Positions 11,041 through 31,812 of a stretch of DNA of 32,000 bases are shown here, piece after piece (position 1 is the stretch's first letter; each line of letters opens with the position of its first letter). Under the pieces are notes generated by a model. It had not been told where the DNA came from, made no database searches, and saw nothing but the letters and a program-made list of their open reading frames with translations. A program made the translations under genes and the position numbers. The DNA lies in NCBI GenBank assembly GCA_030606485.1, contig JAUWGH010000003.1, positions 240,001-272,000 on the forward strand, in the 5' to 3' direction. This DNA comes from Promethearchaeota archaeon (GTDB lineage Archaea > Asgardarchaeota > Lokiarchaeia > Sigyniarchaeales > SOKP01).

Positions 11041-11427
11041 TTGTCTAGTAAGATTAGTACTATTATAAATGTCTTATTAAATGAAGAACCAAATGTAATA
11101 GGGGTAGCTTTAATTGGTAGTGATAATCAAATAAGTTTTCAAACGGAGAACTGGGATTTATCACAAGATTTATCGGGTATATTGAACTTAATTCAAGCCC
11201 AAAGTGGAGTTGGAAGAATTACATTACAGGGGGTTAATTATATGGTTGTTGAGAATACTCCTGAACGAAAAATCGCAACTAATATTAAAGGAAAGGGGCA
11301 TATTATAATTTGTCCTACAGGTGATAACAACGCTGCATTAATGTGTTATATCAGTCCACAAGCCGGTCCTCGTGATGCGTTATTTAACGTGCAAGAATAT
11401 GCAAAAAAATTAAAAAAGAAATTGTAA
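11041..11427 (+). CDS. Asgard profilin (actin-monomer-binding eukaryotic signature protein)
   Basis: 128 aa with a TTG start (in-frame TGA at 11032-34 excludes an upstream start). Motifs QTENWD, QGVNYMVVENTPERKIATNIKGKGH and YISPQAGPRDALFNVQEYA match my recollection of Lokiarchaeota profilins. Confidence 0.85.
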   Translation: MSSKISTIINVLLNEEPNVIGVALIGSDNQISFQTENWDLSQDLSGILNLIQAQSGVGRITLQGVNYMVVENTPERKIATNIKGKGHIIICPTGDNNAALMCYISPQAGPRDALFNVQEYAKKLKKKL

Positions 11428-15458: not shown

Positions 15459-16166
15459 TTACATTAATAACTTAAATTCAAAAATAGCTTTTAATTGTTC
15501 AGCAATTTTCTCTAATAAATTCTTTTCTTCTTCAAGGAAGGGCTTTTCCTCGAGATAATGTACAGAAATACATAATTCCTTATCCTTTATTAAATTTTTA
15601 ACTGTTAATTTCCAAGGGGTTTTTTTATAGTTGTCTGTTAAATATTCTTTTTTATCAAAAACTATTTTTGAACATATCATATCCGGAAATTTCCAGGCAT
15701 TTTGAATTTGCTTTTGAGTTTCTATTAGAATTTCTTCAATTGATATGTTAGGATTTTTTATGAGTTCAATAATATTAAATAAACAATTAAGTTCCTTAAC
15801 TCGTTCTTTTAATTTATTTTCTGCCTTTAAGATTTGCTTGCTTAAAATGACAACCACAATACCAATAAATAAAATTAAGACAGCTCGAAAAATATTTTCT
15901 ATAAGATTATTTAAAAACATATCCAATCCACTTAAAATGGAAAAGAAAATGAGTAATCCAGAGAGAAAGATTGGTACAACCAAACCTTTGTTTCTCCACC
16001 AAAGACATGCAAAAATAATAGGGATATAAAAGAAATGGGAAAAAATAATGCTTATTTTTAGAATAAATTGAAAATAATATTGTAAAAAAAGTGAAGCAGA
16101 TAACAGAATAAATATGATAAGAAATCTTAATTTTTCTTTAGAAATATTAGTTTTTAATCCACCCAT
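15459..16166 (-). CDS. Membrane sensor module (about 4 TM plus GAF-like domain) with no output domain
   Basis: FSHFFYIPIIFACLWW resembles the N-terminal TM module of archaeal sensor kinases. LKERVKELNCLF...AWKFPDMICSKI...PFLEEEKNLLEKIAEQL resembles the GAF-like segment that usually precedes PAS/HisKA domains. The stop follows directly. Confidence 0.65.
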   Translation of the reverse strand: MGGLKTNISKEKLRFLIIFILLSASLFLQYYFQFILKISIIFSHFFYIPIIFACLWWRNKGLVVPIFLSGLLIFFSILSGLDMFLNNLIENIFRAVLILFIGIVVVILSKQILKAENKLKERVKELNCLFNIIELIKNPNISIEEILIETQKQIQNAWKFPDMICSKIVFDKKEYLTDNYKKTPWKLTVKNLIKDKELCISVHYLEEKPFLEEEKNLLEKIAEQLKAIFEFKLLM

Positions 16167-16212
16167 AAATCTTCCTCAATCAGTATAATTCTTATATTAA
16201 AAGGTTTTAATC

Positions 16213-17517
16213 TTAATGGGTTGCACAAGAGATACATGGGTCAAACGATCTTATAATCATTTGCGCTTGTTTTTTTATCTGATTAAAATCCCCAGTTCTT
16301 TCATATAATTTTTGGCTTTGTGTTGTTAGGATTTCATCAATAATTGGCAAATTAATTTCAGTTGCAATAAAAAGCTTCACTTTATCAATTAATCTCTTTT
16401 TATTTACATGATAATAGTGTATGAGAGTTCCTCGAGGTGCTTCAACCATGCCGAGTCCTTCATTATTTCTTAAAAAATTAATGGGACGTATATCATTTTT
16501 TTGTGTCAATTCAGTATCGTCTAGAATTGATAACCCTTCGTAAGAAACAAACATCATTTCTATTAGCCTGATAACGTTTGAGAATAAAATACTATTTTGC
16601 CATTCTTTATTAAAAAGTCCAATATAGGATTGCAGTTCATCTATTCCATAATCATTAATTATTTTATATCGTGCGAGTGGGCCAACAAGAATGTTTTGGT
16701 TGTTTTTTAAATAGAAATCAATTCCACGTATATCCTCCTGCTTATCAAAATATTGCGAATGTTTATATACGGGAAAATCTGCGATAATTTTATTATTTTG
16801 TGCTAATCGTAAGAGTCCATTATACCGGTCATATTTCTCATCATTATGCATTCCCATATAAGCAGGATTTGGTAAGGAATAAACATCAGGAGGATCAAAT
16901 TGAGAAAATATCTCTTGGAATCGCTCAATAATCCATTTTAAATTATTTATAGAATTTTGCAGATATTTCCGTGCAATATTTATTTCTTTTTTGGAAGGAG
17001 AAAAAAATACACCACCGATAATGGGCGTTATTAAATGAACAGACCTTCCACCAAATAAATTCCCAATTTCATTGCCAATTTTTATTAATTCATACATATT
17101 TGAAGTTAATTTGGGATCAAAATGGATTAATTCATTCAGTGAGAGTGGTTTTGGTTGTTTATCCAAAATTACAAAAAGGTCGGGAAATGCTTGAAAAAAG
17201 AAATGCATTGAATGTGATCTTATCAACTCACCAATCATTAATAGTCGTCTCAAAAGAACTGATTGATTTGATGGTTCGACTTCATACATACTCTCTATTG
17301 CTTTACAACTAGCTATTGTCTGTGATGCGTGACACAATCCACATATTCTTGATGCAATTCTAGGAGTATCGATTAGCCTTTTGTCAAGTAAAATATTTTC
17401 AAACCCTCGAAATATCTCAAGATCAAAATTCACACTTGAAATTTCATCTTTCTGAAGTAAAATTTTTATATTTCCATGTCCTTCCACCCGAGTGCATACA
17501 TCAACTACTTTCTTCAT
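16213..17517 (-). CDS. mvhA: [NiFe]-hydrogenase large subunit, group 3 (MvhA-like), atypical
   Basis: TRVEGHG, RGFE, L1 RICGLCHASQ, SHSMHFF..AFPD, GGRSVH, VGPLAR, VEAPRGTLIH and L2 FDPCISCATH followed directly by TAA. Confidence 0.9.
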   Translation of the reverse strand: MKKVVDVCTRVEGHGNIKILLQKDEISSVNFDLEIFRGFENILLDKRLIDTPRIASRICGLCHASQTIASCKAIESMYEVEPSNQSVLLRRLLMIGELIRSHSMHFFFQAFPDLFVILDKQPKPLSLNELIHFDPKLTSNMYELIKIGNEIGNLFGGRSVHLITPIIGGVFFSPSKKEINIARKYLQNSINNLKWIIERFQEIFSQFDPPDVYSLPNPAYMGMHNDEKYDRYNGLLRLAQNNKIIADFPVYKHSQYFDKQEDIRGIDFYLKNNQNILVGPLARYKIINDYGIDELQSYIGLFNKEWQNSILFSNVIRLIEMMFVSYEGLSILDDTELTQKNDIRPINFLRNNEGLGMVEAPRGTLIHYYHVNKKRLIDKVKLFIATEINLPIIDEILTTQSQKLYERTGDFNQIKKQAQMIIRSFDPCISCATH

Positions 17518-17523
17518 AATTTT

Positions 17524-18285
17524 TTACCTCTTGGTTTTTGGTTTTGAATAACGATAGAAAATTCCTTTATATTTCCTTAGACCTTTGGCAAGATTTACAG
17601 TGCTCAAAAAATTAATGGCATTAGAGGTAAAATCGTTTTTAATTGGTCCCATGCACCCATCACAAGGAAGGTTCAATTTAATGCACTTAGATTCACAACC
17701 ATCTCTAGTTATTGGTCCCAAGCATAAAATTCCTCTTTCTAAAAAGCAACGTTTATCTTTATTTTCGATATCTAAGTTATATTCTCTAGGCATTAGTTTA
17801 TTAATTCGTTTCATAAATTTGCTTTCAATATTATCAGTTCTAAATTCGCAATCTACACAAACATTTTTTTCAGGCAAAATAATCTCTTTATTTTCTAGCA
17901 GTCTAATAATACAATTGCCTAATAATTTAGAAGGTGGTGGACATCCAGGAATTATTCCATCTATTTCTATATAATTGGATATGGGTTCTGCTTCTTTTAC
18001 AGTGGAAAGTGCAAGCATTCCACCAAAAGCAGCACAAGTTCCTAAAGCAATTACTCTCTTGGATTTACTCCGAATATTTTTAAGAATATCGATTTGTTTT
18101 TCCTCTGAAACACATCCCTCAATTAAAGCGATATCATTTTCAGAGATATTATTTTCATCTCTCATAAATGAACAACGAACGAGATTTACCTTTTCAAGAA
18201 ATTGAGGAAAGATATCTAATGAAATCATTGTTGAGATACAACCACTACAAGAAGTCAATGATTCGATTAAGAAACTAGGTTTCAT
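17524..18285 (-). CDS. mvhG: [NiFe]-hydrogenase small subunit, group 3 (MvhG-like)
   Basis: LTSCSGC, IEGCV, LGTCAAFGG, IPGCPP, CVDC and CFLERGILCLGPITRDGCESKC...PCDGCMGP; no Tat signal. Start moved from 18312 to the ATG at 18285, which has GAGGAG just upstream and overlaps the previous stop by 11 nt. Confidence 0.88.
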   Translation of the reverse strand: MKPSFLIESLTSCSGCISTMISLDIFPQFLEKVNLVRCSFMRDENNISENDIALIEGCVSEEKQIDILKNIRSKSKRVIALGTCAAFGGMLALSTVKEAEPISNYIEIDGIIPGCPPPSKLLGNCIIRLLENKEIILPEKNVCVDCEFRTDNIESKFMKRINKLMPREYNLDIENKDKRCFLERGILCLGPITRDGCESKCIKLNLPCDGCMGPIKNDFTSNAINFLSTVNLAKGLRKYKGIFYRYSKPKTKR

Positions 18286-20806
18286 TTTTAATCTCCTCTG
18301 ATAATCTTTCATAAAAAGAATTTACAATCTCTGCAAATTTATTGCCCTCAACTGCACTTAATGATTTACGAATTATTCGATTTTCAGCAATAGGACCTAA
18401 AACTTCATTTAAAAGTTTAACTTTTTGTCTTACTTGATCCACACTATTTATATATCGGCAGGAATCTTTTCTGCAACCAATAATCATTACTCCATCAAAT
18501 CCTAATTTGAAAGATTTAAAAATTAAACTCGTATCTACCCGCCCTGTGCATGGAACTTTAATAATAAAGATGTTGGGATTATAGGAAAGTTTCTTTAAGC
18601 CAGCTTCATCGGCTGCACCATATCCGCAAGAACGACAGCAGAATGCGATTATTTTTGGTCGTAAATTGAATTTAGAAAATACCTCAATTGATTTCAGTAT
18701 CTTTTCAGTAGTATCAATGTTTAAGTCAAGTGCATTTGTGGGACAAACACTTACACACGTTCCGCATCCTTTACATTTGAATTTATCAATCGCAATTTTG
18801 TCTGCCTCAATTGTGATTGCATTGTAAGGACAAGATAAAATGCATAAACCACACAATCCGCAATTCTCTTCTTTGATTTCGATACCGCTAAATTCTGTAA
18901 TTAAATAATCATTTGATAACAATGAAATAATTTTAATAGCTACATCATTGGAAGATGAGATCACTGAATTATAATCTAATGGACCTTTAATTGAACCGAC
19001 ACCAAAAATACCTGATGCCAGCGTTTCCTCACTCATAAAACCATGATCGTCTAATGTAAAATCTAAAGTCTTTCGAAGTTCTTTTAAATCTTTATTTGGA
19101 ACAAAATTGACATTTAACACGATCATATCGGAGGGATACTGCTCTGAATCAGAAATAATTATTTTCTTATTTCCTTTCTCTATGATTTCAATATTTTCAT
19201 AATAATGAAATCTTTCATCAGATGGATCTAACATAAATCCAGTAGATTTCTTAATTTTATTTAAATCAAAAAATATGTTAATTTTACAATCAGGAAGTTG
19301 TGAATAAATAGATTCTAAATACTTTATGGCGAGAGTACCACAATATTCCGCTAAATAATCAAATGGGCCTAAACATTGAATTATTGAGATTGATTTCGGT
19401 GGTTTTCCATCAGATAATTTCAAAATTTTACCTTCCGTTGGACCATCCGCTGATAAGATACGTTCAAATTCCGGTGATATAATTACATCATTTTGTGGAT
19501 TATAGTTATAAGGTTTTAATTCAGAATAAAAATCCGCACCAATTGCAATTACTTTTGTTCCAACTCTAATCCTTATTTTTTCAAATTTCTGATCCAAATC
19601 AATCGCATTATTATTGCAAGCTCGCTCGCAAATTCTACATTGTCGGCAAGTTTCAATATCTTCTTGGTCAATCACTGGAGCATATGGATAAGATTGAACA
19701 TAAGGAATATAAATTAACTTCCTTGGTGTTAATCCAAATTCATATTGATTACTTTTTTCTATACTGCAAATTTCAATACATCTTTTACATCCAGTACATT
19801 TCTTTTCATCAACATATCGGGGTTTTTTAACCAAATCAATTGAAAAATTTCCTACTTCACCTGATACTTTTTCTATTTCAGTATTAGTTAAAATTTCGAT
19901 ATTTTTTTCTTTAACAACCTCACCTATCATTTCTGACATAAGACAAATTGAACAATCACCCATTCCATAAATTTTACTCCACCTGGCAATTTTACCTCCT
20001 AATGTTGGGGATTTTTCAATTAAATAAACCTTAATCCCAGCCCTTGCTAGACTTAATGCAAGTGTCATCCCTGCAATTCCGCCACCCAAAATAGCACAAC
20101 TTTTTTCAATCTTAACTGTTTTTACTTGAACATCTTTTTGTAATGCAACACGCTCAACTGCTGCTTCAACTAAAATTTGTGCTTTTTTTAACGCCAGAGT
20201 AGGTTCTTTTAGATGCACCCAGCAACATTGCTCTCTAATATTGGCAATTTCAATATTAACTTTATCAATAACTCCATCAAAAATTCTTTCAAATATATGC
20301 AAATGAGTTTTTGGAGAACACGCAGCAATAACAATCTTATTTAAATAATTATCTTTAGACCATTTAGTAATCTTTTCTAAATTTTTCTCTTGACAAAGAT
20401 TATCAAAAATCTTCACAGCAACTACATTGGGAATTCTTTTAATATAATTTTCAAGTGCATTAATACTTATAAGATTAGAAATTTCAGTATTGCATTTACA
20501 AATAATAACCCCCACTCGATTAATCTCACTACCAACCTTATCCAAATATTCAATATCCTCCCCTGCCAAAATTTTTTTATCAATATTCATTAAATTTATA
20601 ACTCGTTTTCCGTCCTCCGTGAGAAAATAGGATTTTTTATCTTTATTTATTAAAGTCCCAAGTTTTTTAAGGTGAAAGTTTAATTGCCCTGTAGTCTCTA
20701 AACCTAACCTATCCATCAAATCCGTGTAAGGAATATAACCTTCTTTATCAAGAAGTAATAAAACCCTCCTCCTAAATGGATGAGATAAAATTGAATATAT
20801 ATCCAT
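18275..20806 (-). CDS. hdrA: Fusion: ArsR-like winged-helix DNA-binding domain + HdrA-like flavoprotein + MvhD [2Fe-2S] domain
   Basis: aa 1-75: LSHPFRRRVLLLL...YTDLMDRLGLETTGQLNFHLKKL...YFLTEDG (wHTH). Then HdrA motifs RVGVIICKC, AACSPKTH, NIREQCCWVH, GGGIAG, DCSIC, inserted 2x[4Fe-4S], EFER..GPTEG and C-terminal 2x[4Fe-4S]. The last about 128 aa are MvhD (FCCRSCGY, VPCTGRVD, GCRKDSCRY). GGGAG SD-like site upstream. Confidence 0.88.
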   Translation of the reverse strand: MDIYSILSHPFRRRVLLLLDKEGYIPYTDLMDRLGLETTGQLNFHLKKLGTLINKDKKSYFLTEDGKRVINLMNIDKKILAGEDIEYLDKVGSEINRVGVIICKCNTEISNLISINALENYIKRIPNVVAVKIFDNLCQEKNLEKITKWSKDNYLNKIVIAACSPKTHLHIFERIFDGVIDKVNIEIANIREQCCWVHLKEPTLALKKAQILVEAAVERVALQKDVQVKTVKIEKSCAILGGGIAGMTLALSLARAGIKVYLIEKSPTLGGKIARWSKIYGMGDCSICLMSEMIGEVVKEKNIEILTNTEIEKVSGEVGNFSIDLVKKPRYVDEKKCTGCKRCIEICSIEKSNQYEFGLTPRKLIYIPYVQSYPYAPVIDQEDIETCRQCRICERACNNNAIDLDQKFEKIRIRVGTKVIAIGADFYSELKPYNYNPQNDVIISPEFERILSADGPTEGKILKLSDGKPPKSISIIQCLGPFDYLAEYCGTLAIKYLESIYSQLPDCKINIFFDLNKIKKSTGFMLDPSDERFHYYENIEIIEKGNKKIIISDSEQYPSDMIVLNVNFVPNKDLKELRKTLDFTLDDHGFMSEETLASGIFGVGSIKGPLDYNSVISSSNDVAIKIISLLSNDYLITEFSGIEIKEENCGLCGLCILSCPYNAITIEADKIAIDKFKCKGCGTCVSVCPTNALDLNIDTTEKILKSIEVFSKFNLRPKIIAFCCRSCGYGAADEAGLKKLSYNPNIFIIKVPCTGRVDTSLIFKSFKLGFDGVMIIGCRKDSCRYINSVDQVRQKVKLLNEVLGPIAENRIIRKSLSAVEGNKFAEIVNSFYERLSEEIKNET

Positions 20807-21162
20807 ATTTCTAATCTCCCTTTAATTATTTTTACCAATCATTATTTGGAAATTTATAATTCTTTGTTGAAAACCGAAAATAAATATTTTTAAAAAAAAT
20901 AATTATTATTTTCACTATGACAAATAAAGTTATCAAAAATAAAAATCTTACTGATCAAAAATCTTCAAAGTGTAATTATTCTCATTTTTAAACTGAAAAT
21001 AAAATTAGTTAAAAAAAAAAAAAGAAAATTAAAGTTATTAAAAAGACAATTTTTTTCTTTAAAACCACATAAAAATGAAAGAAAAAAAGATGTATTTCAA
21101 TTCTTTTTAGAAATAACTTGTCAAAATAAAGATAAGTTGATAAATCACTTATGATAATGAAA

Positions 21163-21187
21163 ATTGTCAATTTTATATTTTGACAAT
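21163..21187. promoter_or_regulatory. Inverted repeat ATTGTCAA-N9-TTGACAAT, candidate operator enclosing a TATA-like spacer
   Basis: Perfect 8-bp arms at 21163-21170 and 21180-21187 with spacer TTTTATATT, in the divergent intergenic region between the hydrogenase operon and the Mtd cluster. Confidence 0.5.
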
Positions 21188-21312
21188 ATTAGTTGTTAAA
21201 ATGGAGATAATTCTTTTTATCAAATTATTTTTATTATATTGTTAAGGTTAATTACTCGGTAAAAGAAAAAATAAAAAATAATTAAATAATTAAACAAAAG
21301 GTCCTTGATTAA

Positions 21313-21972
21313 ATGGAAGTTTTAGAAATCGAGCCGATAAAAAATAAAAAAATTTTTCTTTATATAATAGAGAAAGAAGATTATAAAATATCGCACGTAA
21401 AAGCAAAAATTTTCGAGGACTTTTTAAAAAATTATAAATTTGATTTTGCTACTATTGACTTATTGGGTAAAAATTTAAAACCATTAAATAATTCACCCAT
21501 AGCGAAATTTTTAGAAGATTTTTCAATCGAATTTATCGGTATTGACATTCCTGAATACGCAAAAGGTTATTTATTGGTAGAAATATCCGATAAAAAAGAA
21601 CAAATTAAGGAATTAGAATCAGAATATGAAAGTTTATCCAATGATCCCTCTGGAAAAGAATCATTTAAGGGGCAAAATCTAAAATCTTGGATTGATTTAT
21701 TAAAAGAGGAAGTTAATGATAAAGAACAATATATAAAATTAAAAGTTAAGCCTCAATGGATCGTTAAAAAAATATTGGACAGGGCAAGAACTTATAAGAA
21801 AAATTCCTTAATTATTTTACATTTAAGTCCAGAAGAATTAGTTCCTGAATTACAAAAATTGTTTCAGGAACTCAAAATAAATGTTATTATAAATGATTTT
21901 AGCACTGGAGTTTCAGATCGAACTTTTGATGCTAAGAATAAAGTAATAATTTCAAATCAAATCATAAAATAG
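21313..21972 (+). CDS. Hypothetical protein (domain copy A1; paralog of 24101..24733)
   Basis: Clear paralogy with A2 (FATIDL, IPEYAKGYL vs IPDYAKIYL, QNLKSWIDLLKEEV vs QNLNSWIHLLKSEV), and weaker similarity to the N-domains of the following genes. Confidence 0.8.
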   Translation: MEVLEIEPIKNKKIFLYIIEKEDYKISHVKAKIFEDFLKNYKFDFATIDLLGKNLKPLNNSPIAKFLEDFSIEFIGIDIPEYAKGYLLVEISDKKEQIKELESEYESLSNDPSGKESFKGQNLKSWIDLLKEEVNDKEQYIKLKVKPQWIVKKILDRARTYKKNSLIILHLSPEELVPELQKLFQELKINVIINDFSTGVSDRTFDAKNKVIISNQIIK

Positions 21973-21985
21973 GAGGTAAAAAAAA

Positions 21986-23668
21986 TTGCAAGTATTAGAA
22001 TTAAAACCTTTAAAAAATAAAAAATTAGAAATAATATTAATGGAAAGTGAGTTTCCAATTAGTTGGTGGTTGGAACCAACAAAAGAACAGCTGGAAGAAT
22101 CTTTAAATTTCAGTTTTATGTCAAAGGATTATCTCAAGCTTATTGAAGACATGTTGCGGAAATATCAACCTAATTTTGTAGCTGAAGAACGAGGGTTGCG
22201 TGAAAGTGATAAACTTCATTATGATGATGCTTTTATTGATTTATTTAGAGATTTTAAAATACTATATAAAATGGTAGATATTAATGAAAATGCTTTGGGG
22301 TATCTCGCTTCAACAATAGATAAAAATGCAGATCTTCTAAATGGAATAAAAGCAGAAATTAAAAAAATCAAAAAAAAGGGAGGTTTTCATCCTAATGATC
22401 ACTATTTCCAGCAATTAATTGTTTGGGAGGACTATTTACAGAGTGAATACAAAAATCAAGAGGAAGAAATAAGGTATAAGATCCGAGAAGCTTGGATGAT
22501 GATGGGGGTTCTTGACATAGCAAAAGAACAGAAAGAGAAAAACTTAAAATGTCTATTTATTTGTGATAAAAGGCATTTTGATGGTATTACAAGCCTTGCA
22601 GATGATCTGGGAATAGAAGTTCAAAAATTTGAAGTTAAGAAAAGTATTTTAAATATTGGGGATTTAGCGAAGCCAAATACGATAAAAGAGTTTATAAAGG
22701 TATCACTTATGGAAGTCGCCCCCATTAAAATAAAGAAAACAAGTTCCTTAGAGAAAATTGTGTATTTTCTTGATACAGACGAGCATGCCTCTCCCTTTGA
22801 TATTAATATGGCCTATGATGCAGGATTTGATGTAGTTATTCCTATTAACAATGTAAAAGCTGAACAAGTGCCACAACTCGTGCAAGATGCGATATTCTCG
22901 CGAAAGCCAAAAGCTCCGACCAGTTTTTTCATTGGTGGAGCGAATGTAAGGGAAGGCGAAAAAATTGCAAAAGAAGTTGTAAAGTCGTTGGTACCACCCT
23001 TCGAAGTCCCTGTGGTCATAGACCCGCGAGGGTCTCATACTACGGCTTCGGCAGTTGTTGCAAAAACTTTGGAAGCAGCAATGAAAAATGGGATAAATAA
23101 TATTTCTGGAAAAAAAGCGGTCATATTAGGAACTGGTCCTGTCGGGCGAATTGCAGCAATAATTGCGGCAAAACAAAATTGTGAAACAGTTTTAGTTGAG
23201 ACATGGGATAAGGGAAGTGAAAAAGCTGTAAAGCAGCTTGCAAAAGAATTAACTAAAGGGGCAGGAGAAGGTGCTTCTGAAATACTTGGAGAATTCGCAA
23301 TAACGGATGAGAAAAAATTTGAAATAATAAAAGATGCTGATATAATCTGGTCTTTAGCAGCTGCAGGAGTTCAAATCTTATCAGAAGAATTGATGAGTAA
23401 ATTACCAAAAAATAAAATCGTAATAGACATTAATTTAGTTCCGCCATACGGAATTGAAGGAATAAAACCAAAACACGATAATAAAGAAATATATCCAGGA
23501 ATTTTTGGAATTGGAGCATTAGGAATAGGTCATTTAAAATCTAATACGGAAAGTTCTATTCTTAAAGAAGCTACCAAAACCAAAGGAAAGAAAATATTCG
23601 ATTATAACATTGCTTTTGAAATTGCAAAAGAATTATTATTTGGTAAAGAGATTACAATATCTCGTTAA
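21986..23668 (+). CDS. Unknown N-domain fused to NAD(P)-dependent methylene-H4MPT dehydrogenase (MtdA/MtdB family), copy B1
   Basis: TTG start with GGAGGT SD. From about nt 22754: DTDEHASPFDINMAYDAG, LVQDAIFSR, FIGG, PPF, DPRGSHTTASA (Mtd N-domain), then Rossmann GTGPVG and DINLVPPYGIEG. Confidence 0.85.
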   Translation: MQVLELKPLKNKKLEIILMESEFPISWWLEPTKEQLEESLNFSFMSKDYLKLIEDMLRKYQPNFVAEERGLRESDKLHYDDAFIDLFRDFKILYKMVDINENALGYLASTIDKNADLLNGIKAEIKKIKKKGGFHPNDHYFQQLIVWEDYLQSEYKNQEEEIRYKIREAWMMMGVLDIAKEQKEKNLKCLFICDKRHFDGITSLADDLGIEVQKFEVKKSILNIGDLAKPNTIKEFIKVSLMEVAPIKIKKTSSLEKIVYFLDTDEHASPFDINMAYDAGFDVVIPINNVKAEQVPQLVQDAIFSRKPKAPTSFFIGGANVREGEKIAKEVVKSLVPPFEVPVVIDPRGSHTTASAVVAKTLEAAMKNGINNISGKKAVILGTGPVGRIAAIIAAKQNCETVLVETWDKGSEKAVKQLAKELTKGAGEGASEILGEFAITDEKKFEIIKDADIIWSLAAAGVQILSEELMSKLPKNKIVIDINLVPPYGIEGIKPKHDNKEIYPGIFGIGALGIGHLKSNTESSILKEATKTKGKKIFDYNIAFEIAKELLFGKEITISR

Positions 23669-23680
23669 ATTCAAAACTCA

Positions 23681-23710
23681 CTTCTTTTTTTTTATTTTTT
23701 TTTATTTTAT
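23681..23710 (+). terminator. T-rich tract downstream of copy B1
   Basis: CTTCTTTTTTTTTATTTTTTTTATTTTAT begins 13 nt after the stop codon. Confidence 0.5.
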
Positions 23711-24100
23711 GTTTAATTAATATAGAGCATATTTTAATTAATGATAAAAAAAGAATTGTATAGTTGATTATTTTAATTATCAATTTTATCAAACTTCTTT
23801 TGTTATATTTTTTTCATAGTAAGTTCTAAAAAAGAAAACTTTTTAATTTTTGACAATAAGTTTTGTTATTTTGATTAGTGCAGTTGTCTATTTTTTCAAA
23901 ATTTTTTTATCAAAATTTTTTCATAACTAATTCTAAAATAGAAATCTTTTAATTGATGATAAAAAAAATGGTCAAAATGATAAATTAATTAGTCAAATTT
24001 CTTAAAATCTTTCTTATCAAATACATTAAATGATTGGATTTAAATTAATTAAATAGAAAAAAAAAATTTCAGAATATAATAAAATTTGGAATGGGTAAAA

Positions 24101-24733
24101 ATGGAAGTATTAGATTTTAAAAAATTGGAAAATAATAAGAAGGTTTCTCTATATCTAATAGAAAAGGATAAAAAAGAATTATCTGACGCAGAACATGAAA
24201 ATTTATTGGCTCTCTTAAGAAAACAAAAATTCAATTTTGCTACGATTGATTTAAGCGATGATGATTTAAAAAAGATTTACCTGACTCCTTTAGCACAATT
24301 TTTTGATAATTTTGGGATACCATATTATTATGTTAATATCCCTGACTACGCTAAAATTTATTTATTAAATGAAATCTCAGAAAAAAAAGAACAAATTGAG
24401 GAATTACAAGGAGAATATGAGAAACTCTGTTCAGATCCTGCCGAGAAAGAGTCATTAAAGGCTCAAAATCTGAACTCATGGATACACCTCTTAAAAAGTG
24501 AAGTAAAAGACAAAGAAAATCATTTAGATTTAAAGCTAACACCTTTATGGATCACAAAAAAGGTATTAGATATAATTAAGATGATTAATGACGATGAGAT
24601 TAGTATTATTCATTTTACCCGTAAAGAATTGTTTTCTGAATTGAAAAAGTTATTTGAATCTCAAAATATCAAGGTTATTAATCTTGAGACAAGCAAAATT
24701 ATGAAAAAAAAATCAATTTTAATTTTAACTTAA
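24101..24733 (+). CDS. Hypothetical protein (domain copy A2)
   Basis: Paralog of 21313..21972. The ATG at 24101 (MEVLDF, cf. MEVLEI) is preferred over the TTG at 24086 in the ORF track. Confidence 0.8.
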   Translation: MEVLDFKKLENNKKVSLYLIEKDKKELSDAEHENLLALLRKQKFNFATIDLSDDDLKKIYLTPLAQFFDNFGIPYYYVNIPDYAKIYLLNEISEKKEQIEELQGEYEKLCSDPAEKESLKAQNLNSWIHLLKSEVKDKENHLDLKLTPLWITKKVLDIIKMINDDEISIIHFTRKELFSELKKLFESQNIKVINLETSKIMKKKSILILT

Positions 24734-24751
24734 ATAGGAGGTAAGTAAAAA

Positions 24752-25450
24752 ATGCAAGTATTAGAATTAGAAAGATTAAAAAATAAAACTCTTAAATTGT
24801 TATTAGTAGAGAGTGAATTTCCAATAGATTGGTCATTGGAAGCATCTTCAGAGGAAGAAGCTATTGCTGCAAAATTATTTATTATGTCTAAGAAATATTT
24901 GCAGTTTATTGAAGATATAGTAAAAAATCACAAGCCAGATTTTATAGTGGAAGAAAAAGGAATGCGCTCAAGTGATGATTTACAATATGATGATGCTTTA
25001 GTAGATTTATTCAGAGAATATAACATTCGATATAAAATGGTTGATATTTCCGAGAATGCTTTAGGTTATCTTGCTTCGACAATTGACAGAAATGTAGGTC
25101 TTTTAAAAGACTTTAGAGTAGAAATTGAAAATTTAAAAGAGAAGGGTGGTTTTCATCCTAATGATTTTAAACTTGAGCAATTAGTTGCCTGGAGGGATTA
25201 TTTACAGGGCGAATATTCTAATCAAGAAGATGAGATAAGATATGAAGTCCGTGAATCTTGGATGATGATGGGGATTCTTGATTTAGCAAGGAAGATTGAG
25301 AAAAAGCATTTAAAAGCAATATTTATCTGTGATAAAGAACATTTTGATGGAATAAAATCTCTAGCAGATGATTTAGGAATAAATATTGAAGTAATAAATG
25401 TAAATAAAATTTTAAAAAAAATAGAACAGCATTCGACACAAATTAATTAA
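24752..25450 (+). CDS. Stand-alone copy of the unknown N-domain (N2)
   Basis: GGAGGT SD. Aligns end-to-end with the first about 230 aa of B1 and B2 (ESEFPIDW, PDFIVEE, ENALGYL, GGFHPND, RESWMMMG, FICDKEHFDGI) and stops before the Mtd part. Confidence 0.82.
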   Translation: MQVLELERLKNKTLKLLLVESEFPIDWSLEASSEEEAIAAKLFIMSKKYLQFIEDIVKNHKPDFIVEEKGMRSSDDLQYDDALVDLFREYNIRYKMVDISENALGYLASTIDRNVGLLKDFRVEIENLKEKGGFHPNDFKLEQLVAWRDYLQGEYSNQEDEIRYEVRESWMMMGILDLARKIEKKHLKAIFICDKEHFDGIKSLADDLGINIEVINVNKILKKIEQHSTQIN

Positions 25451-25474
25451 AAAATAAGAGGTAATTTTTATAAA

Positions 25475-27148
25475 ATGCAATCTTTAGAATTAAAACCTTT
25501 AAAAAATAAGACTCTTAAGTTAGTATTAGTTGAGAGTGAATTTCCAATAGATTGGTCGTTGGAAGAGCCGACAGGGGAAGAAGCCATTGCTGCAAATATA
25601 TTTTTTGTTTCTAAGGAATATATGGAATTTACTGAAAATTTGGTGAAGAAATACAATCCTGATTTTGCAGTAGAGGATAAAGGGATGAGGTCAAATGATA
25701 GGCTGCTTTATGAGGATGAATTTGTAGATTTATTCAGAAAAAATGAGATCCCCTACAAAATGATAGGCATCCCTGAGAATGCTCTAAATTATATCTCCTC
25801 GGGATTGAATGGTAGTAAAGAACTTATAGAGAAATTTACTTCGGAGATTAGGGAATTAAAAGAAAAAGGCGGAGTTCATCCAAATGATCCACATTATCAA
25901 CAATTAATGATGTGGAGAGAACATTTACGGGATGAGTATAATAAGCAGGAAGATGAGATAAGATATAAAATCCGCGAATCTTGGATGATGATGGGAATTC
26001 TTGAATTAGGAAAAAAAATGGAGAAAAAACACTTGAAGGCATTATTTATTTGTGATAAAAGGCATTTTGATGGCATTTCGACTTTAGCAGATGATCTTGG
26101 AATTGACATTGAACAAATAAATATCAAAAAAGTTGCTAAAGATTTTCATGATGATATTTCTTCGGTAAAAGAATTAGTAAATACATCTGTTCTCGAAATA
26201 ATCCCGATAAAGATAAAGAAAAAAGTGAAGGCGGAAAGTATTTTGTATTTTTTTGATACTGATGAATATGCATCACCTTTTGATATTAATATGGCCTATG
26301 ATGCAGGGTTTAATGTTGTTATTCCTTTTTGCAACATTACGGCTGATAGAGTCGCTAGATTGGTCCAAGATGCTATGTTTTCACGAAAACCAAATGCTCC
26401 AACCGTTTATTTTGTTGGTGGATCAGATGTTGAAGAAGGTGAGAAAGTTGCAGAAGAGGTACAAAATGCACTTGTTCCTCCTTTTGAGGCCCCTGTAATT
26501 ATAGATCCTCGTGGAGCTCATACTACGGCTTCAGCTGTTGTTGCTAAAACCATAGAAATTGCAAGAAAACACGGAATAACAGATTTTACAGGAAAGAAAA
26601 TAGTTATTTTAGGGGGTACGGGACCAGTAGGACAAATTGGAGCGATACTTGCAGCTAAATTTCACGCTACACCCGTAATAATCTCCCGTCGGGAAAAGGC
26701 TGTAAAAGAACTTGCAAAGAAATTAATGGAAAAAGCAGGAGAAGGCGCTTCTGAAATAATTGGAATAGCGGCAACCACCGATGAAGAAAGATTTGAAATA
26801 GTAAAAGATGCCGATATAATTTGGTCAGTTGCAAAAGCCGGAATTCAAATGATATCAAAAGAATTAATGAAAAAACTCCCGCCAAACAAGATTGTTCTTG
26901 ATATTAATTTAGTTCCACCTTACGGAATTGAAGGACTAAAACCAAATTCTAACGACGATGAGATTTATCCAGGGATTTATGGAATCGGTGCTTTAGATAT
27001 AGGACGTCTTAAATATAAAATTGAAAGCCAGATTTTTAAGGATGCAACCAATACCAAGGGAAAGAAGGTGTTCGACTATAACTATGCTTTTGAAACAGCA
27101 AAAAAGATACTATTCGGAACTGAAATTACAGTTACACACACAAAATAA
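25475..27148 (+). CDS. Unknown N-domain fused to MtdA/MtdB-family methylene-H4MPT dehydrogenase, copy B2
   Basis: Same architecture as B1: DTDEYASPFDINMAYDAG, LVQDAMFSR, DPRGAHTTASA, GGTGPVG, ISRR and DINLVPPYGIEG. GAGGT SD upstream. Confidence 0.85.
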   Translation: MQSLELKPLKNKTLKLVLVESEFPIDWSLEEPTGEEAIAANIFFVSKEYMEFTENLVKKYNPDFAVEDKGMRSNDRLLYEDEFVDLFRKNEIPYKMIGIPENALNYISSGLNGSKELIEKFTSEIRELKEKGGVHPNDPHYQQLMMWREHLRDEYNKQEDEIRYKIRESWMMMGILELGKKMEKKHLKALFICDKRHFDGISTLADDLGIDIEQINIKKVAKDFHDDISSVKELVNTSVLEIIPIKIKKKVKAESILYFFDTDEYASPFDINMAYDAGFNVVIPFCNITADRVARLVQDAMFSRKPNAPTVYFVGGSDVEEGEKVAEEVQNALVPPFEAPVIIDPRGAHTTASAVVAKTIEIARKHGITDFTGKKIVILGGTGPVGQIGAILAAKFHATPVIISRREKAVKELAKKLMEKAGEGASEIIGIAATTDEERFEIVKDADIIWSVAKAGIQMISKELMKKLPPNKIVLDINLVPPYGIEGLKPNSNDDEIYPGIYGIGALDIGRLKYKIESQIFKDATNTKGKKVFDYNYAFETAKKILFGTEITVTHTK

Positions 27149-28290: not shown

Positions 28291-29571
28291 ATGGCTAAAA
28301 CAAGAACTATTGAAGAAATTACACAAAAAATCGAAAAAAACACCGCCGTCGTAATGACGGCGCAAGAATTCTTGGATAACATTGCAGAGGGTGAAAAAAT
28401 TGAATTCGAAGATGTTGATGTAATTACAACTGCGACAAAAGGATTAATGAGTGGAATTGCTGGAATATTTTCTTTTCGATTAGCTGAACCAAAAAAATAT
28501 AGAAAATTTAAAGAAATAACCTTAAATGGAATTCCCGGTTATGTTGGTCCATGTCCTAATGAATTTTTAGGCGTAATTGATGTAATTGTATATAGCACAG
28601 CTCATAGTAAAACGAGAACCAATTATACAGGTGGTTTTTTATTTAGAGATCTCGTTGAAAATAAACCAATTGAAATGAAAGCAGAAACTGAAGAAGGAGT
28701 CGTAATAGAGAAAATGTTGAGCTTAAAAGATATGCAATTTGCAAGACTAATGGGGACTCGTCAAGCAATTAAAAATTATAGTGCAATGATGAATCCAACA
28801 AAAGAATATGTAGAGACTATTTTTTCAGCTCTAAAATTTGAACCAAATAATTCTCAACTAACATTTTCTGGGTGTGGAGCATTAAATCCACTTCAAAATG
28901 ATCCTGATTTTGAGACTATTGGAGTGGGTACTCCTGTATTAGTTAATGGAAGTATAGGATATGTTATGGGACCAGGAACTAGAAATTATATTTTAAAACC
29001 AAATTTAATGACTATCGCAGATTTTGAGGGAATGAAACCCGAATATATGGGTGCATTTATGACATCATATGGACCAGAACCAATATGTTCTATTGCAGTA
29101 CCATTTCCTATTTTGAATGAGAAGATTCTAAACAATATGGTTAAATCAGATAAAGATGTTCCTCTTCAAATTTTAAACTTAGTTGGAAGAGAAAAAATGG
29201 GTGAAATTACTTATGGGGATGTCTGGGATAATAATTACCTAATAACATTTGATCCTAAAAAATGTATAAAATGTGAAACTTGTCCAGTTGAAACTGATTG
29301 CCCAACCCATGCATTTACTGTGGAAAAGGGTATTGATAAAACAAGATGTTATAATTGTGGAACTTGTATTCAAATGTGTCCTGAACCCGCTTTTATTGGT
29401 GATTTAAAAAGCATTAAATTTGAAGGTAAGGAAGTTCCAGTCGTATTACGTCAATCAGATAGATTCGGAGCAATAAAATTAGCGGAAGAATTAAAATCAC
29501 TAATTTTAAAAGGAGAATTTCCTTTAAAGGAGTCTATTGCAAAAATAAAATTTTATAAATATAAGATATAA
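28291..29571 (+). CDS. DUF39/HcyBio-domain protein with ferredoxin (methanogenesis marker 16 metalloprotein type)
   Basis: RTIEEI..KI....AVVMTAQE, VDVITTATKGLMSG, FSGCG.LNPLQNDP, IGVGT..LVNG..GYV.G.GTR, and two Cys clusters (CIKCETCPVETDCP; CYNCGTCIQMCP) before RQSDR..A.KLAEELK. Confidence 0.8.
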   Translation: MAKTRTIEEITQKIEKNTAVVMTAQEFLDNIAEGEKIEFEDVDVITTATKGLMSGIAGIFSFRLAEPKKYRKFKEITLNGIPGYVGPCPNEFLGVIDVIVYSTAHSKTRTNYTGGFLFRDLVENKPIEMKAETEEGVVIEKMLSLKDMQFARLMGTRQAIKNYSAMMNPTKEYVETIFSALKFEPNNSQLTFSGCGALNPLQNDPDFETIGVGTPVLVNGSIGYVMGPGTRNYILKPNLMTIADFEGMKPEYMGAFMTSYGPEPICSIAVPFPILNEKILNNMVKSDKDVPLQILNLVGREKMGEITYGDVWDNNYLITFDPKKCIKCETCPVETDCPTHAFTVEKGIDKTRCYNCGTCIQMCPEPAFIGDLKSIKFEGKEVPVVLRQSDRFGAIKLAEELKSLILKGEFPLKESIAKIKFYKYKI

Positions 29572-29581
29572 AAATTAAAGT

Positions 29582-30034
29582 ATGAAAAATATGTCTGAAA
29601 TAAAAATTCCTAAATTTGACCAAGTAGGTATTGTTGTAAAAGATATCGAAAAAGCTGCGGAGATCTTTGGAAAGCTTCTTAACTTTCGAGCTAAACTAAA
29701 TATCGTTGAACAAAGTAGCGATGTAAATTATAAAGGTCAGGAAGGAACTGTGAAAATGAAAAAAATTATGCAGCATTGGGGGGATAAACAGTTAGAAATT
29801 GTGGAAGTCGTAGAAGCCACAGGGCCTAATGTTTATTCCGATGCGATCGAAGCAGGACGATTTGGATTACATCACCTAGGAACATATACCAAAAACGCAG
29901 ACGAAATGTTAAAATTTTTCAAAGAAAAGTATAATATCGATGTTATCCAAAGCGGAAAAGCCGGGAAAGTTAATTTTTATTACCTCGATACCGAAAAAAT
30001 ATTAGGATTTATTCTAGAACTTATTAATATTTAA
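29582..30034 (+). CDS. VOC family protein (glyoxalase/methylmalonyl-CoA epimerase-like)
   Basis: DQVGIVVKDIEKA, LEIVE, GLHHLG and terminal LELI metal-ligand pattern (Q/E/H/E). Start may be 29591. Confidence 0.8.
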   Translation: MKNMSEIKIPKFDQVGIVVKDIEKAAEIFGKLLNFRAKLNIVEQSSDVNYKGQEGTVKMKKIMQHWGDKQLEIVEVVEATGPNVYSDAIEAGRFGLHHLGTYTKNADEMLKFFKEKYNIDVIQSGKAGKVNFYYLDTEKILGFILELINI

Positions 30035-30051
30035 TATTATTAATCAAATCA

Positions 30052-31812
30052 ATGAGAAAAATTATGAGTAAAGAAAAAAAAGAAGAAAGTTATAATGGTG
30101 GGGATTTATTTGTCCAATGCTTACTTAATGAAGGCGTGGAGTATATATTTGGCATTGTAGGAGGGCAATTATTAGCGATTTATGATGCGATAAATCGATG
30201 GGGTAAGGATAAAGGCATCGATACCATAATGACAAGACACGAACAAGCAGCAGGACACATGGCTGATGGCTACGCAAGAGTTACCGGGAAAATCGGTGTA
30301 TGTATGGGTACCGTAGGACCCGGAGTGACTCATTTAATACCAGCTGTCGCCGCCGCATACATGGATTCGATACCTCTCCTCGTTATAGGTGCCCAAATTT
30401 TAAGGGTACAAGACCGTAAAGGTTTTTATCAAGGCGATGTTCAACAAATAGAAATGTTGAGACCAATTACTAAGTTTCAAATTAGAGTAGAGGAACCTAA
30501 TAAAATCCCCGGTGCAGTTCGGGCTTGCTTTATTGAAGCTTTATCTGGAAGACAGCGCCCAGTTTTTCTAGAGATAAGGGAATCTGCTCTAACGGGCAGA
30601 GTTAGTAAAGAAGTTATGGAACAGATATGGAGTCCAGAATTGTACAGACCTCAAACAAAGCTTTTTGGGGATCCAAAACAAATTGAGAAAGCATTAGAAC
30701 TCCTTAAAAATGCGAAGAAACCGTTTTTAATAGTTGGGGGCGGCGTAATGAGGTCAGGAGCTTGGGAGGAGTTGAGGAAATTTTCAATTAAATACAAAAT
30801 CCCGATTGGAACAACACCCAATGGGGTGGGAGCATTAGGAAAGGATGACGAAACCTTTGTTGGTACGACCGTGGGACCAACTTATATGCAAAACACTGCT
30901 AAAACCGCGGATGTCGTGATGGCTGTGGGTTGTAAGTGGGATTTCACTTTATTTTTCGGAGGTGCGCCCTTATGGGGGTCCAATCAAAAGACTATACATG
31001 TGGACATTGATCCTCAAGTTATAGGATTAAACCGTAAGACGGATATCGGAATAGTAGCCGATGCAAAGGCGGCTTTAACCCAAATTTTAGAGAAAAGTGA
31101 TGAGTACCTAAAAGAAAATCAATTTTCTGAGTGGAACATTCAAGTTCAAGAATATAAGGAAAAACGAGAGCAATTAGAATTAAAACCAAAAATTTCGGAA
31201 AAAGTTCCTATTCAGACGCAAAGATTATTAAATGAAATCTTCGATTTCTTTCCAAAAGAAACGATTTTTGCAATAGATGGCGGTGATCTTGCTACATTTT
31301 GTTGGATGCAAGTTAATACAAAGCATAGACCTCCACGAAGTACTTTAGCTTCTATTTCAATGGGTCATTTAGGAGTTGGGATTCCGTATGTAATCGGCGC
31401 AAAATTTGCATTTCCGGATAAACCATGTGTAAATATAGTAGGTGACGGCTCATTCCTATTTAATGTACAAGAACTCGATACATCTATAAGATACAAATTG
31501 CCAATCATAAATATAATTGCAAATAATAGTGCGTGGGGCATGATTAAAAGTGGGCAACGATATGGCTGGAATAAACGATATTATAATGTAGATCTTATAG
31601 GAACTGACTATGCTCGGATTGGAAAGGGTTTTGGATGTTATGCTGAAACAGTTGAAAAACCAGAAGATCTCAAACCTGCCTTTCAGCGGGCGATAGATTC
31701 GAGATTACCTGCAGTAATAAATGTAATATTGGAGTTTAAAACACCAGTTGCTACAAAAATACTCCAAACAATGAAAAAAGCAACAATAAAAAAGGCGCAA
31801 AAAGCAAAGTGA
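30052..31812 (+). CDS. Thiamine-diphosphate enzyme, acetolactate synthase-like / 2-hydroxyacyl-CoA lyase (ILVBL/HACL) family
   Basis: TRHEQAAGHMADGYARVTG, GPG and the TPP motif GDGSFLFNVQEL...IIANNSAWG. Start may be 30064. Confidence 0.88.
   Translation: MRKIMSKEKKEESYNGGDLFVQCLLNEGVEYIFGIVGGQLLAIYDAINRWGKDKGIDTIMTRHEQAAGHMADGYARVTGKIGVCMGTVGPGVTHLIPAVAAAYMDSIPLLVIGAQILRVQDRKGFYQGDVQQIEMLRPITKFQIRVEEPNKIPGAVRACFIEALSGRQRPVFLEIRESALTGRVSKEVMEQIWSPELYRPQTKLFGDPKQIEKALELLKNAKKPFLIVGGGVMRSGAWEELRKFSIKYKIPIGTTPNGVGALGKDDETFVGTTVGPTYMQNTAKTADVVMAVGCKWDFTLFFGGAPLWGSNQKTIHVDIDPQVIGLNRKTDIGIVADAKAALTQILEKSDEYLKENQFSEWNIQVQEYKEKREQLELKPKISEKVPIQTQRLLNEIFDFFPKETIFAIDGGDLATFCWMQVNTKHRPPRSTLASISMGHLGVGIPYVIGAKFAFPDKPCVNIVGDGSFLFNVQELDTSIRYKLPIINIIANNSAWGMIKSGQRYGWNKRYYNVDLIGTDYARIGKGFGCYAETVEKPEDLKPAFQRAIDSRLPAVINVILEFKTPVATKILQTMKKATIKKAQKAK

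Follow-up and report, generated by a model that had tools for sequence, protein, structure and literature searches.

Two paralogous genes, B1 and B2, in a 32,000-nucleotide stretch of a Promethearchaeota genome (NCBI GenBank assembly GCA_030606485.1, contig JAUWGH010000003.1, positions 240,001 to 272,000, or G000:C8:240001-272000 in our numbering; hereafter the window) encode proteins in which a complete dehydrogenase of the MtdA/MtdB family follows a large additional N-terminal domain. B1 carries the cofactor-site marks of an enzyme that uses nicotinamide adenine dinucleotide (NAD), and B2 those of an enzyme that uses its phosphate (NADP). Judged from alignments of their relatives, this difference is not a matter of chance, and it is the conserved NAD-type/NADP-type split, together with the patchy co-occurrence of the two types in genomes, that is new in the sequence comparison presented here. 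Membership of the family is itself not new, given that both proteins are already annotated in GenBank and JGI as NAD(P)-dependent methylene-tetrahydromethanopterin (methylene-H4MPT) dehydrogenases or Mpt_N-domain proteins; in the literature, no description was found of the archaeal fused branch, of its two cofactor-motif subfamilies or of its linkage to Hdr/Mvh genes. We give a probability of about 0.6 to the reading that B1 and B2 are NAD(H)- and NADP(H)-preferring methylene-H4MPT dehydrogenases, respectively, which work beside the F420-dependent enzyme Mtd in a redox-balancing network that includes HdrA-Mvh.

The place of both proteins in the MtdA/MtdB family is supported by domain profiles, sequence searches and fold. 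The Pfam domain Mpt_N (PF09176) is found at residues 270-347 of B1 and 268-345 of B2 (94 and 90.3 bits, cut-off 27), and genome-wide exactly two genes carry it, namely these two. The C-terminal halves (~255-555) cover MtdA of Methylorubrum extorquens (PDB 6TLK, 6TGE, 1LU9) over its whole length: in phmmer searches of PDB, residues 256-554 of B1 (E 9e-35) and 254-545 of B2 (E 3e-34) match a stretch of the MtdA chain, residues 3-291, that is collinear with both. B1, which is 59% identical to B2, consists of an N-domain (residues 1-252) and an MtdA-like dehydrogenase of the acidic, NAD-type subfamily (~256-560). A full-length AlphaFold2 model of B1 reached a mean predicted local distance difference test score (pLDDT) of 88, and Foldseek superimposed it on MtdA (6tlk) with a template-modelling score (TM) of 0.93 and a root-mean-square deviation of 1.7-1.8 Å over 299 columns; the runners-up were generic Rossmann proteins (E 1e-7), 17 orders of magnitude weaker. 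All of the 30 positions conserved in at least 95% of 158 Asgard, crenarchaeal and bacterial members are retained in B1, and 17 of them fall in the substrate-side domain; they include, in B1 numbering, S269, P270, F271, D272, D278, R306, D346, P347, G349, T353, D481, N483 and K518. Thus, the family assignment made by an earlier reading of the DNA from its letters alone (hereafter the sequence-only reading) is backed by Pfam, phmmer and the Foldseek fold match. Its description of the genes as duplicated dehydrogenases needs amending: they are indeed two paralogues, but not simple duplicates of MtdA/MtdB size, since each carries an extra domain of ~250 residues, which brings B1 to 560 and B2 to 557 residues whereas MtdA and MtdB are single polypeptides of ~290-300 residues.

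In Rossmann folds, an acidic residue at the end of the second β-strand (β-2) binds the ribose 2'-OH and disfavours a 2'-phosphate, whereas the 2'-phosphate is bound where a small residue precedes Arg or Lys. The cofactor region of B1 reads ...GKKAVILGTGPVGRIAAIIAAKQNCETVLVETWDKG... in translation, and the two NAD-type marks tested, a GxGxxG loop and an acidic end of β-2, are both present. In the model, the glycine-rich loop lies between β-1 (377-381) and the dinucleotide-binding helix (385-396), followed by β-2 (400-405), and Glu405 stands 18 residues past the last Gly of the loop. The Glu is kept at this position in all acidic-type homologues, and directly after it B1 has a four-residue insert, TWDK, which is absent from the Ser-Arg type. 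The loop is one residue shorter than those of B2 and MtdA. The corresponding region of B2 reads ...GKKIVILGGTGPVGQIGAILAAKFHATPVIISRREKA... in translation; in the HMMER alignment of B2 to 6TLK/6TGE, which defines the correspondence of its Ser-Arg-Arg (SRR) with the Gly-Arg-Lys (GRK) of MtdA, the NADP-type marks tested, a non-acidic β-2 end and a small residue followed by Arg, are present. The sequence-only reading had described precisely these features, that is, GTGPVG and a β-2 ending VETWD in B1, and GGTGPVG and a β-2 ending ISRRE in B2; translation and model confirm the Glu codon and the end of β-2 in B1, and the SRR codons of B2 are where it had put them (Table 1).

Its further claim, that the two proteins bear opposite cofactor marks, holds beyond the pair itself, as these marks turn out to be conserved subfamily traits. 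The 120 best full-length Asgard homologues fall without exception (120/120) into two motif types in the alignment. The acidic type has the loop G[TAS]-GPV[GA] and the β-2 end [VI]ETW[DEN]K, and the Ser-Arg type has the loop GGTGPVGQ and the β-2 end [IT]S-R-[RSN], with four residues fewer. The same dichotomy recurs in loci fetched for all Mpt_N matches from a sample of 151 Asgard genomes, 45 of which had one, and, when these are aligned with ~100 stand-alone relatives, through the whole family: Methylomirabilis-type and crenarchaeal proteins end β-2 with G/T-S-R, and MtdA with G-R-K. One genus, g3, has three tandem unfused Mtd-like genes (L032:8699-12196, L060), encoding proteins of 304 residues (S-R type), 316 residues (ETW type) and 317 residues (a divergent ETL motif); no N-domain or A gene, the small paralogue described below, was found in the g3 stretches fetched.

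A maximum-likelihood tree with a midpoint root, into which, as relatives, only MtdB-type, Methylomirabilis-type and crenarchaeal proteins were taken, groups the Lokiarchaeal family of the window (f1) into one clade (SH-aLRT support 100). Within it, the S-R type forms a subclade (SH-aLRT 96), to which B2 belongs and which is surrounded by lineages of the acidic type; families f18 and f2, the closest outgroups, are likewise acidic. Given this nesting and these outgroups, the S-R state looks derived within f1 under the midpoint root. Elsewhere on the tree, family f12 has acquired T-S-R independently, and families f8 and f13 show A-E-P and S-P-N, respectively. The tree requires at least four state changes, which mark the β-2 motif as evolutionarily labile. 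The two types are distributed unevenly among the 45 genomes with Mpt_N: both occur in 8, the acidic type only in 21, the S/T-R type only in 13 and another motif in 3, figures in which gaps of metagenome-assembled genomes could hide second copies, most of the 45 genomes being 90-100% complete. All three genomes of the window's genus have both types in the same gene order (L027 and L033 being the other two). In another genus, g4, where the units consist of three separate genes (A, N, Mtd), one site, flanked by the hdrA-mvh operon and cdc48, holds a single type, which differs from species to species.

Table 1. Positions of the genes, codons and intergenic regions of the locus within the window
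Feature	Positions	Strand	Description	Basis
B1	21986-23668	+	560-aa fusion, TTG start	Translation
B1 glycine-rich loop	23129-23146	+	G382-T-G-P-V-G387, classical GxGxxG	Translation, alignment, model
B1 Glu405 codon	23198-23200	+	Last residue of Rossmann β-2 (strand 400-405)	Model
B2	25475-27148	+	557-aa fusion with the architecture of B1, Ser-Arg (NADP-type) subfamily	Translation
B2 glycine-rich loop	26612-26632	+	G380-G-T-G-P-V-G386, form as in MtdA AGTGPVG	
B2 Ser404-Arg405-Arg406 codons	26684-26692	+	End of β-2; align with MtdA Gly-Arg-Lys	
A1	21313-21972	+	219 aa, distant N-domain paralogue, first gene of the A1-B1 operon	
A2	24101-24733	+	A1 paralogue (48% identity), first gene of the second operon	
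N'	24752-25450	+	232 aa, stand-alone N-domain copy; 63% identity to B2 1-222, E 2e-105	
Divergent operon	15459-20806	-	wHTH-HdrA-MvhD, MvhG-like, [NiFe] large subunit, 235-aa protein	Pfam
wHTH(DUF7347)-HdrA-MvhD fusion	18275-20806	-		Pfam
MvhG-like small subunit	17524-18312	-		Pfam
[NiFe] large subunit (MvhA)	16213-17517	-		Pfam
235-aa protein	15459-16166	-	Of no family	Pfam
Divergent promoter region	20807-21312	.	Between the hydrogenase operon and A1-B1; six TTRTCAA motifs	
Inter-operon region	23669-24100	.	Poly-T run right after the B1 stop, then AT-rich DNA; five TTRTCAA motifs	

The genome offers a pathway in which such enzymes could act. Mch (E 1e-109), Ftr (E 2e-52), CdhC, the acetyl-CoA synthase (E 3e-59), and CofD (E 7e-94) are all encoded, and their presence indicates that the H4MPT pathway and F420 synthesis are in place; the search for H4MPT-pathway genes that the sequence-only reading had proposed as a check thus came out positive. 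FolD is present too; FTHFS was not found in the genome, and all Mer-like matches in it lie under the curated cut-off. An F420-dependent Mtd (PF01993) is encoded as well (G000:C8:113690-114499, E 2e-108), which makes B1 and B2 a supplement to the F420 enzyme, not a substitute for it; the contrast that the sequence-only reading drew with methanogens, which use F420-dependent Mtd, is blurred because this genome itself has F420-Mtd and CofD. About 2 kb from the F420-Mtd gene lie an NfnA-like gene (306 aa) and an FrhB-NfnB fusion (912 aa), all within a region ~126 kb upstream of the window (G000:C8:107917-114499; L062, L005). In relatives (L034, L040, L047, L051, L057, L061), NfnA-like and FrhB-NfnB genes, which encode NADPH-linked modules, stand directly after an S-R-type Mtd gene, which fits an NADP(H) link of that type, within one clade; among dereplicated rows an NfnA-like neighbour is seen in 3/15 of the S/T-R type vs 0/25, a difference that comprises 3-4 independent contrasts and has no statistical power.

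Two operons make up the locus, A1-B1 and A2-N'-B2, with a poly-T run and an AT-rich stretch between them, and opposite them lies a divergent operon for a winged helix-turn-helix (wHTH)-HdrA-MvhD fusion and hydrogenase subunits. Linkage of HdrA-MvhD, MvhG and MvhA to an Mtd-like gene is kept in three Asgard families, divergently in f1 and f18 and on the same strand in f12, where the order is HdrA-MvhD, MvhG, MvhA and a fused Mtd-like gene with gaps of 62-191 nt. Other f1 genomes have an HdrBC/HdrA/MvhD/FrhB set in the divergent position. The sequence-only reading had noted a putative H2 sensor opposite the pair; a hydrogenase cluster is indeed encoded divergently, but its linkage, conserved in three families, would fit a metabolic partner or a shared regulon better than an incidental sensor.

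A shared promoter motif points in the same direction. TTRTCAA occurs 43 times in the window vs 25.8 ± 5.6 expected, with the inter-operon copies at 23777, 23786, 23850, 23907 and 24014, and between hdrA and the A gene in 24 additional Asgard loci from f1 and f18 (L014, L016, L018, L019, L034 and 19 further ones) it reaches 3-16 per kb vs ~1 elsewhere. It is probably a conserved operator that joins both Mtd operons and the hydrogenase operon in one regulon, as the motif counts suggest, and the wHTH fused to HdrA would be a candidate for the protein that binds it. In two loci, FrhB-like proteins with a C-terminal TrmB-type HTH adjoin Mtd-like genes (L011:11765-13201, L012:4136-5587), a second fusion of a DNA-binding domain with a redox subunit at an Mtd locus, beside wHTH-HdrA.

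The N-domain of B1 and B2, ~250 residues long, is specific to Asgard archaea and Bathyarchaeia. A search of 1.84 billion representative proteins with its profile gave only 124 clusters, and the loci examined show the domain fused or adjacent to an Mtd-like enzyme. No Pfam or NCBIfam family was found in scans of B1, B2 and A1, nor in a Pfam scan of 30 members of the domain. In the model it forms a separate α/β domain with a long helical hairpin (pLDDT 83), for which Foldseek found no PDB match at E <= 0.001. VIA-align comparisons are dominated by helical hairpins, ChaN (2g5g) scoring Z 7.7 over 150 residues, which is within noise, and the hints, weak though concordant, among them an Atlas TraB cluster (TM 0.48/0.51, feature score 0.80), make a relationship to TraB/PrgY/GumN (Tiki-like) or TraB/ChaN-like proteins a lead only; a TraB (PF01963) match was absent from the Pfam scan of the 30 members.

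Three more copies of the N-domain are present at the locus as small genes, A1, A2 and N'. A1, which ends 13 nt before B1, is 24% identical to B1 residues 1-255 (BLASTP E 3e-10), and a gene of the A type precedes the Mtd-like gene in most f1 and f18 loci. The start of A2 is listed as TTG at 24086 by the open reading frame finder; homologues begin with MEVL, equivalent to an ATG at 24101, which on this comparison is probably the true start. N' is found in both genus-mates (L027, L033) as well, and one contig of metatranscriptome run X20, ~96.5% identical, covers 24795-25431, within the N' gene only; it hints, weakly, at transcription of N' in a related strain, DNA carry-over being possible, and no contig of that run lies over B1 or B2. 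Prediction of a complex between A1 and the B1 N-domain gave a score of 0.00, which counts neither way. Many f1 genomes have a split architecture, with separate genes for A (~205 aa), the N-domain (~241 aa) and Mtd (~331 aa) in that order (L034, L038, L039, L041, L043-L045, L047, L050, L051, L054, L012), so the fusion seen in the window is one of two interchangeable architectures.

In the favoured reading, which builds on the observed family membership, fold, motif positions, subfamily conservation, pathway context and synteny, and in which we infer the substrate, the cofactor preference, the flux direction and any physical association with Hdr/Mvh, B1 and B2 would be paralogues of an archaeal (Asgard/Bathyarchaeia) branch of MtdA/MtdB that is fused to a lineage-specific N-domain. 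Their catalytic halves would transfer a hydride reversibly between the methylene carbon of methylene-H4MPT and C4 of the nicotinamide, with methylene-tetrahydrofolate (methylene-H4F) as a possible further substrate. B1, a member of the widespread acidic subfamily, is predicted to prefer NAD(H), and B2, of the Ser-Arg subfamily, NADP(H), and together with F420-Mtd they would couple a single C1-pterin pool to NAD, NADP and F420. The methenyl-/methylene-H4MPT couple has a standard potential (E0') near -390 mV, so that oxidation with NAD(P)+ is favourable, as in methylotrophs; the reduction direction would require high NAD(P)H ratios or coupling. Because of the shared promoter motif and the conserved gene linkage, the two Mtd operons and the divergent HdrA-MvhD/MvhGA operon probably constitute one redox-balancing regulon serving a cytoplasmic network.

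Several points weigh against this reading. In the literature searched, no assayed enzyme of the archaeal branch was found. MtdB is acidic at the end of β-2 yet dual in cofactor use, so by analogy Glu405 may confer dual rather than NAD-only use. The role of SRR of B2 in binding the 2'-phosphate is predicted from the alignment and the Rossmann rule, and sequence by itself cannot separate H4MPT from H4F as the substrate. F420-Mtd and FolD, already present in the genome, make it hard to see why two more dehydrogenases would be needed. Finally, fusion to the N-domain, the presence of small paralogues and close linkage to Hdr/Mvh could indicate a role other than that of a free-standing dehydrogenase.

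That B1 and B2 overlap in cofactor use, with B1 dual like MtdB and B2 NADP-preferring, or both largely dual, so that the paralogues differ mainly in regulation, partners or kinetics, is unlikely. MtdB-type proteins have Asp at the position of Glu405, and MtdB uses either NAD or NADP (PMC3227643); close relatives live with one type only at the same locus, and the β-2 motif is as labile as the at least four changes on the Asgard tree imply. Within subfamilies, however, the motif sets are strict down to the Gly-loop residue and the four-residue indel, which suggests selection for different pockets, and the Glu-Thr-Trp of B1 is unlike the Asp-Pro/His of MtdB. Still less can be said for a dedicated pterin-mediated transhydrogenase, the role suggested by the sequence-only reading, in which one enzyme would oxidise methylene-H4MPT and the other reduce methenyl-H4MPT, passing hydride between NADH and NADPH. 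The adjacent operons share TTRTCAA and are thus probably co-expressed, the predicted specificities are opposite, and none of the three genomes of the genus lacks the pair; however, with both types in only 8/45 Asgard genomes (21 with the acidic type only, 13 with S/T-R only) and with either type alone at the hdrA-mvh/cdc48 site of g4, such a function is not a conserved one. Moreover, Nfn-type modules in the genome already interconvert the NAD and NADP pools, and transhydrogenation is a side effect of any two dehydrogenases that share a substrate, for which no dedicated selection is needed. We consider this role very unlikely.

The linkage to hydrogenase genes raises the question of whether B1 and B2 are free C1 dehydrogenases at all or modules of HdrA-MvhD/MvhAG (or Hdr/FrhB, Nfn/FrhB) complexes, in which they would supply an electron-bifurcating hydrogenase with an acceptor site for nicotinamide or pterin, with the N-domain and the small paralogues as docking parts. 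The association with wHTH-HdrA-MvhD, MvhG and MvhA in f1, f18 and f12 outlasts changes in gene order, the HdrBC-HdrA-MvhD-FrhB set takes the same place in other genomes, and the operon in the window has no hdrBC, which leaves HdrA without an assigned high-potential acceptor; the rarity of the N-domain (124 clusters in 1.84 billion proteins) and its fusion or adjacency to the enzyme in the loci examined also speak for such modules. On the other hand, B1 and B2 have no flavin or iron-sulphur motifs to take single electrons from HdrA, their catalytic half retains the invariant residues of ordinary MtdA/MtdB, and around half of the dereplicated loci, on contigs many of which are short, have no HdrA-MvhD within 4.5 kb, so that we regard a module of this kind as highly doubtful. 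A specific form of it can be set against the background that Asgard archaea are without the methanogen-type heterodisulfide: the Mtd-like fusions would be the missing acceptor module of Asgard HdrA-MvhD/MvhAG, bifurcation would send electrons from H2 to ferredoxin on one side and, by way of the Mtd-like module, to the methenyl-H4MPT/NAD(P) couple on the other, the two paralogues would be two alternative outlets, and the N-domain and small paralogues would serve for docking. We rate this proposal as improbable.

The DNA around the locus and the homologues of its genes identify the source as a Loki-type Asgard archaeon. The genome assembly is 3.75 Mb in size with a completeness of 100%, and the window has a G+C content of ~30%. 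Near-identical DNA is found in cold-seep and marine-sediment metagenomes from at least 8 studies, and the closest homologues of the genes studied are named Promethearchaeota, Lokiarchaeota, Helarchaeota, Thorarchaeota and Odinarchaeota. An open reading frame for 128 residues at 11041-11427 of the window encodes a Profilin domain (E 1e-5; 25.8 bits, with 25 as the cut-off), and as a eukaryotic signature protein its product agrees with an Asgard origin. Downstream of the pair, positions 28291-31812 hold genes for an HcyBio-family protein with ferredoxin motifs (homocysteine biosynthesis type), a glyoxalase-fold protein and a thiamine diphosphate (ThDP)-dependent enzyme resembling acetolactate synthase, with no obvious connection to the Mtd pair, and an Rfam scan of the window found no RNA family.

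If B1 and B2 have the cofactor preferences predicted in the favoured reading, the archaeal Wood-Ljungdahl pathway of these organisms would have direct connections to both pyridine-nucleotide pools in addition to F420, and electron-balance reconstructions, which currently assume F420 at the methylene-H4MPT step, would change. As natural variants set apart by one residue in the Gly loop and an indel of four residues at β-2, the two proteins would provide a clean system for studying the switching of cofactor specificity, and the HdrA-Mvh linkage would offer a concrete lead on what orphan hydrogenase/Hdr modules feed.

Among known systems, Moorella thermoacetica MetFV-HdrABC-MvhD is an example of a C1-pterin oxidoreductase tied genetically and physically to the electron-bifurcation modules Hdr/MvhD. 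The Asgard locus, known from its genes alone, resembles it in having a C1-pterin oxidoreductase near Hdr/MvhD, a functional analogy; MetFV differs in being a methylene-H4F reductase, which acts at another step and in a bacterial host. The step of the H4MPT pathway proposed here is also that of the F420-dependent Mtd (PF01993) of methanogens, but this enzyme has an unrelated fold, uses F420 and gives no match to B1 or B2. MtdA of Methylorubrum extorquens AM1 is much closer, with 31-32% identity (E ~1e-34) and the same two-domain fold (TM 0.93). Described in the title of PDB 6TGE as a bifunctional NADP-dependent methylene-H4MPT/methylene-H4F dehydrogenase, MtdA is like B2 in its xGTGPVG loop and in a β-2 end composed of a small residue, Arg and a basic residue (GRK vs SRR), whereas B1 has Glu and a shortened GxGxxG loop instead of these NADP marks. 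At 288 residues, MtdA is without the ~250-residue N-terminal domain and the small accessory paralogues, and its host is an aerobic methylotroph, whereas that of B1 and B2 is an anaerobic Asgard archaeon with the archaeal Wood-Ljungdahl pathway. MtdB of methylotrophic and methanotrophic bacteria, represented here by acidic MtdB-type sequences from methanotrophs that NCBI names NAD(P)-dependent Mtd, is 38-41% identical to the catalytic half of B1 and shares with it an acidic β-2 end (Asp in VDPF/VDH vs Glu405); in contrast to B1, it keeps the GGTGPVG loop, has no TW(D/E)K insert and is an unfused protein of ~300 residues. The presence of MtdA and MtdB together in methylotrophs is a precedent for two Mtd paralogues with different cofactor use, and, since MtdB forms a separate bacterial clade on the tree, the Asgard split arose independently.

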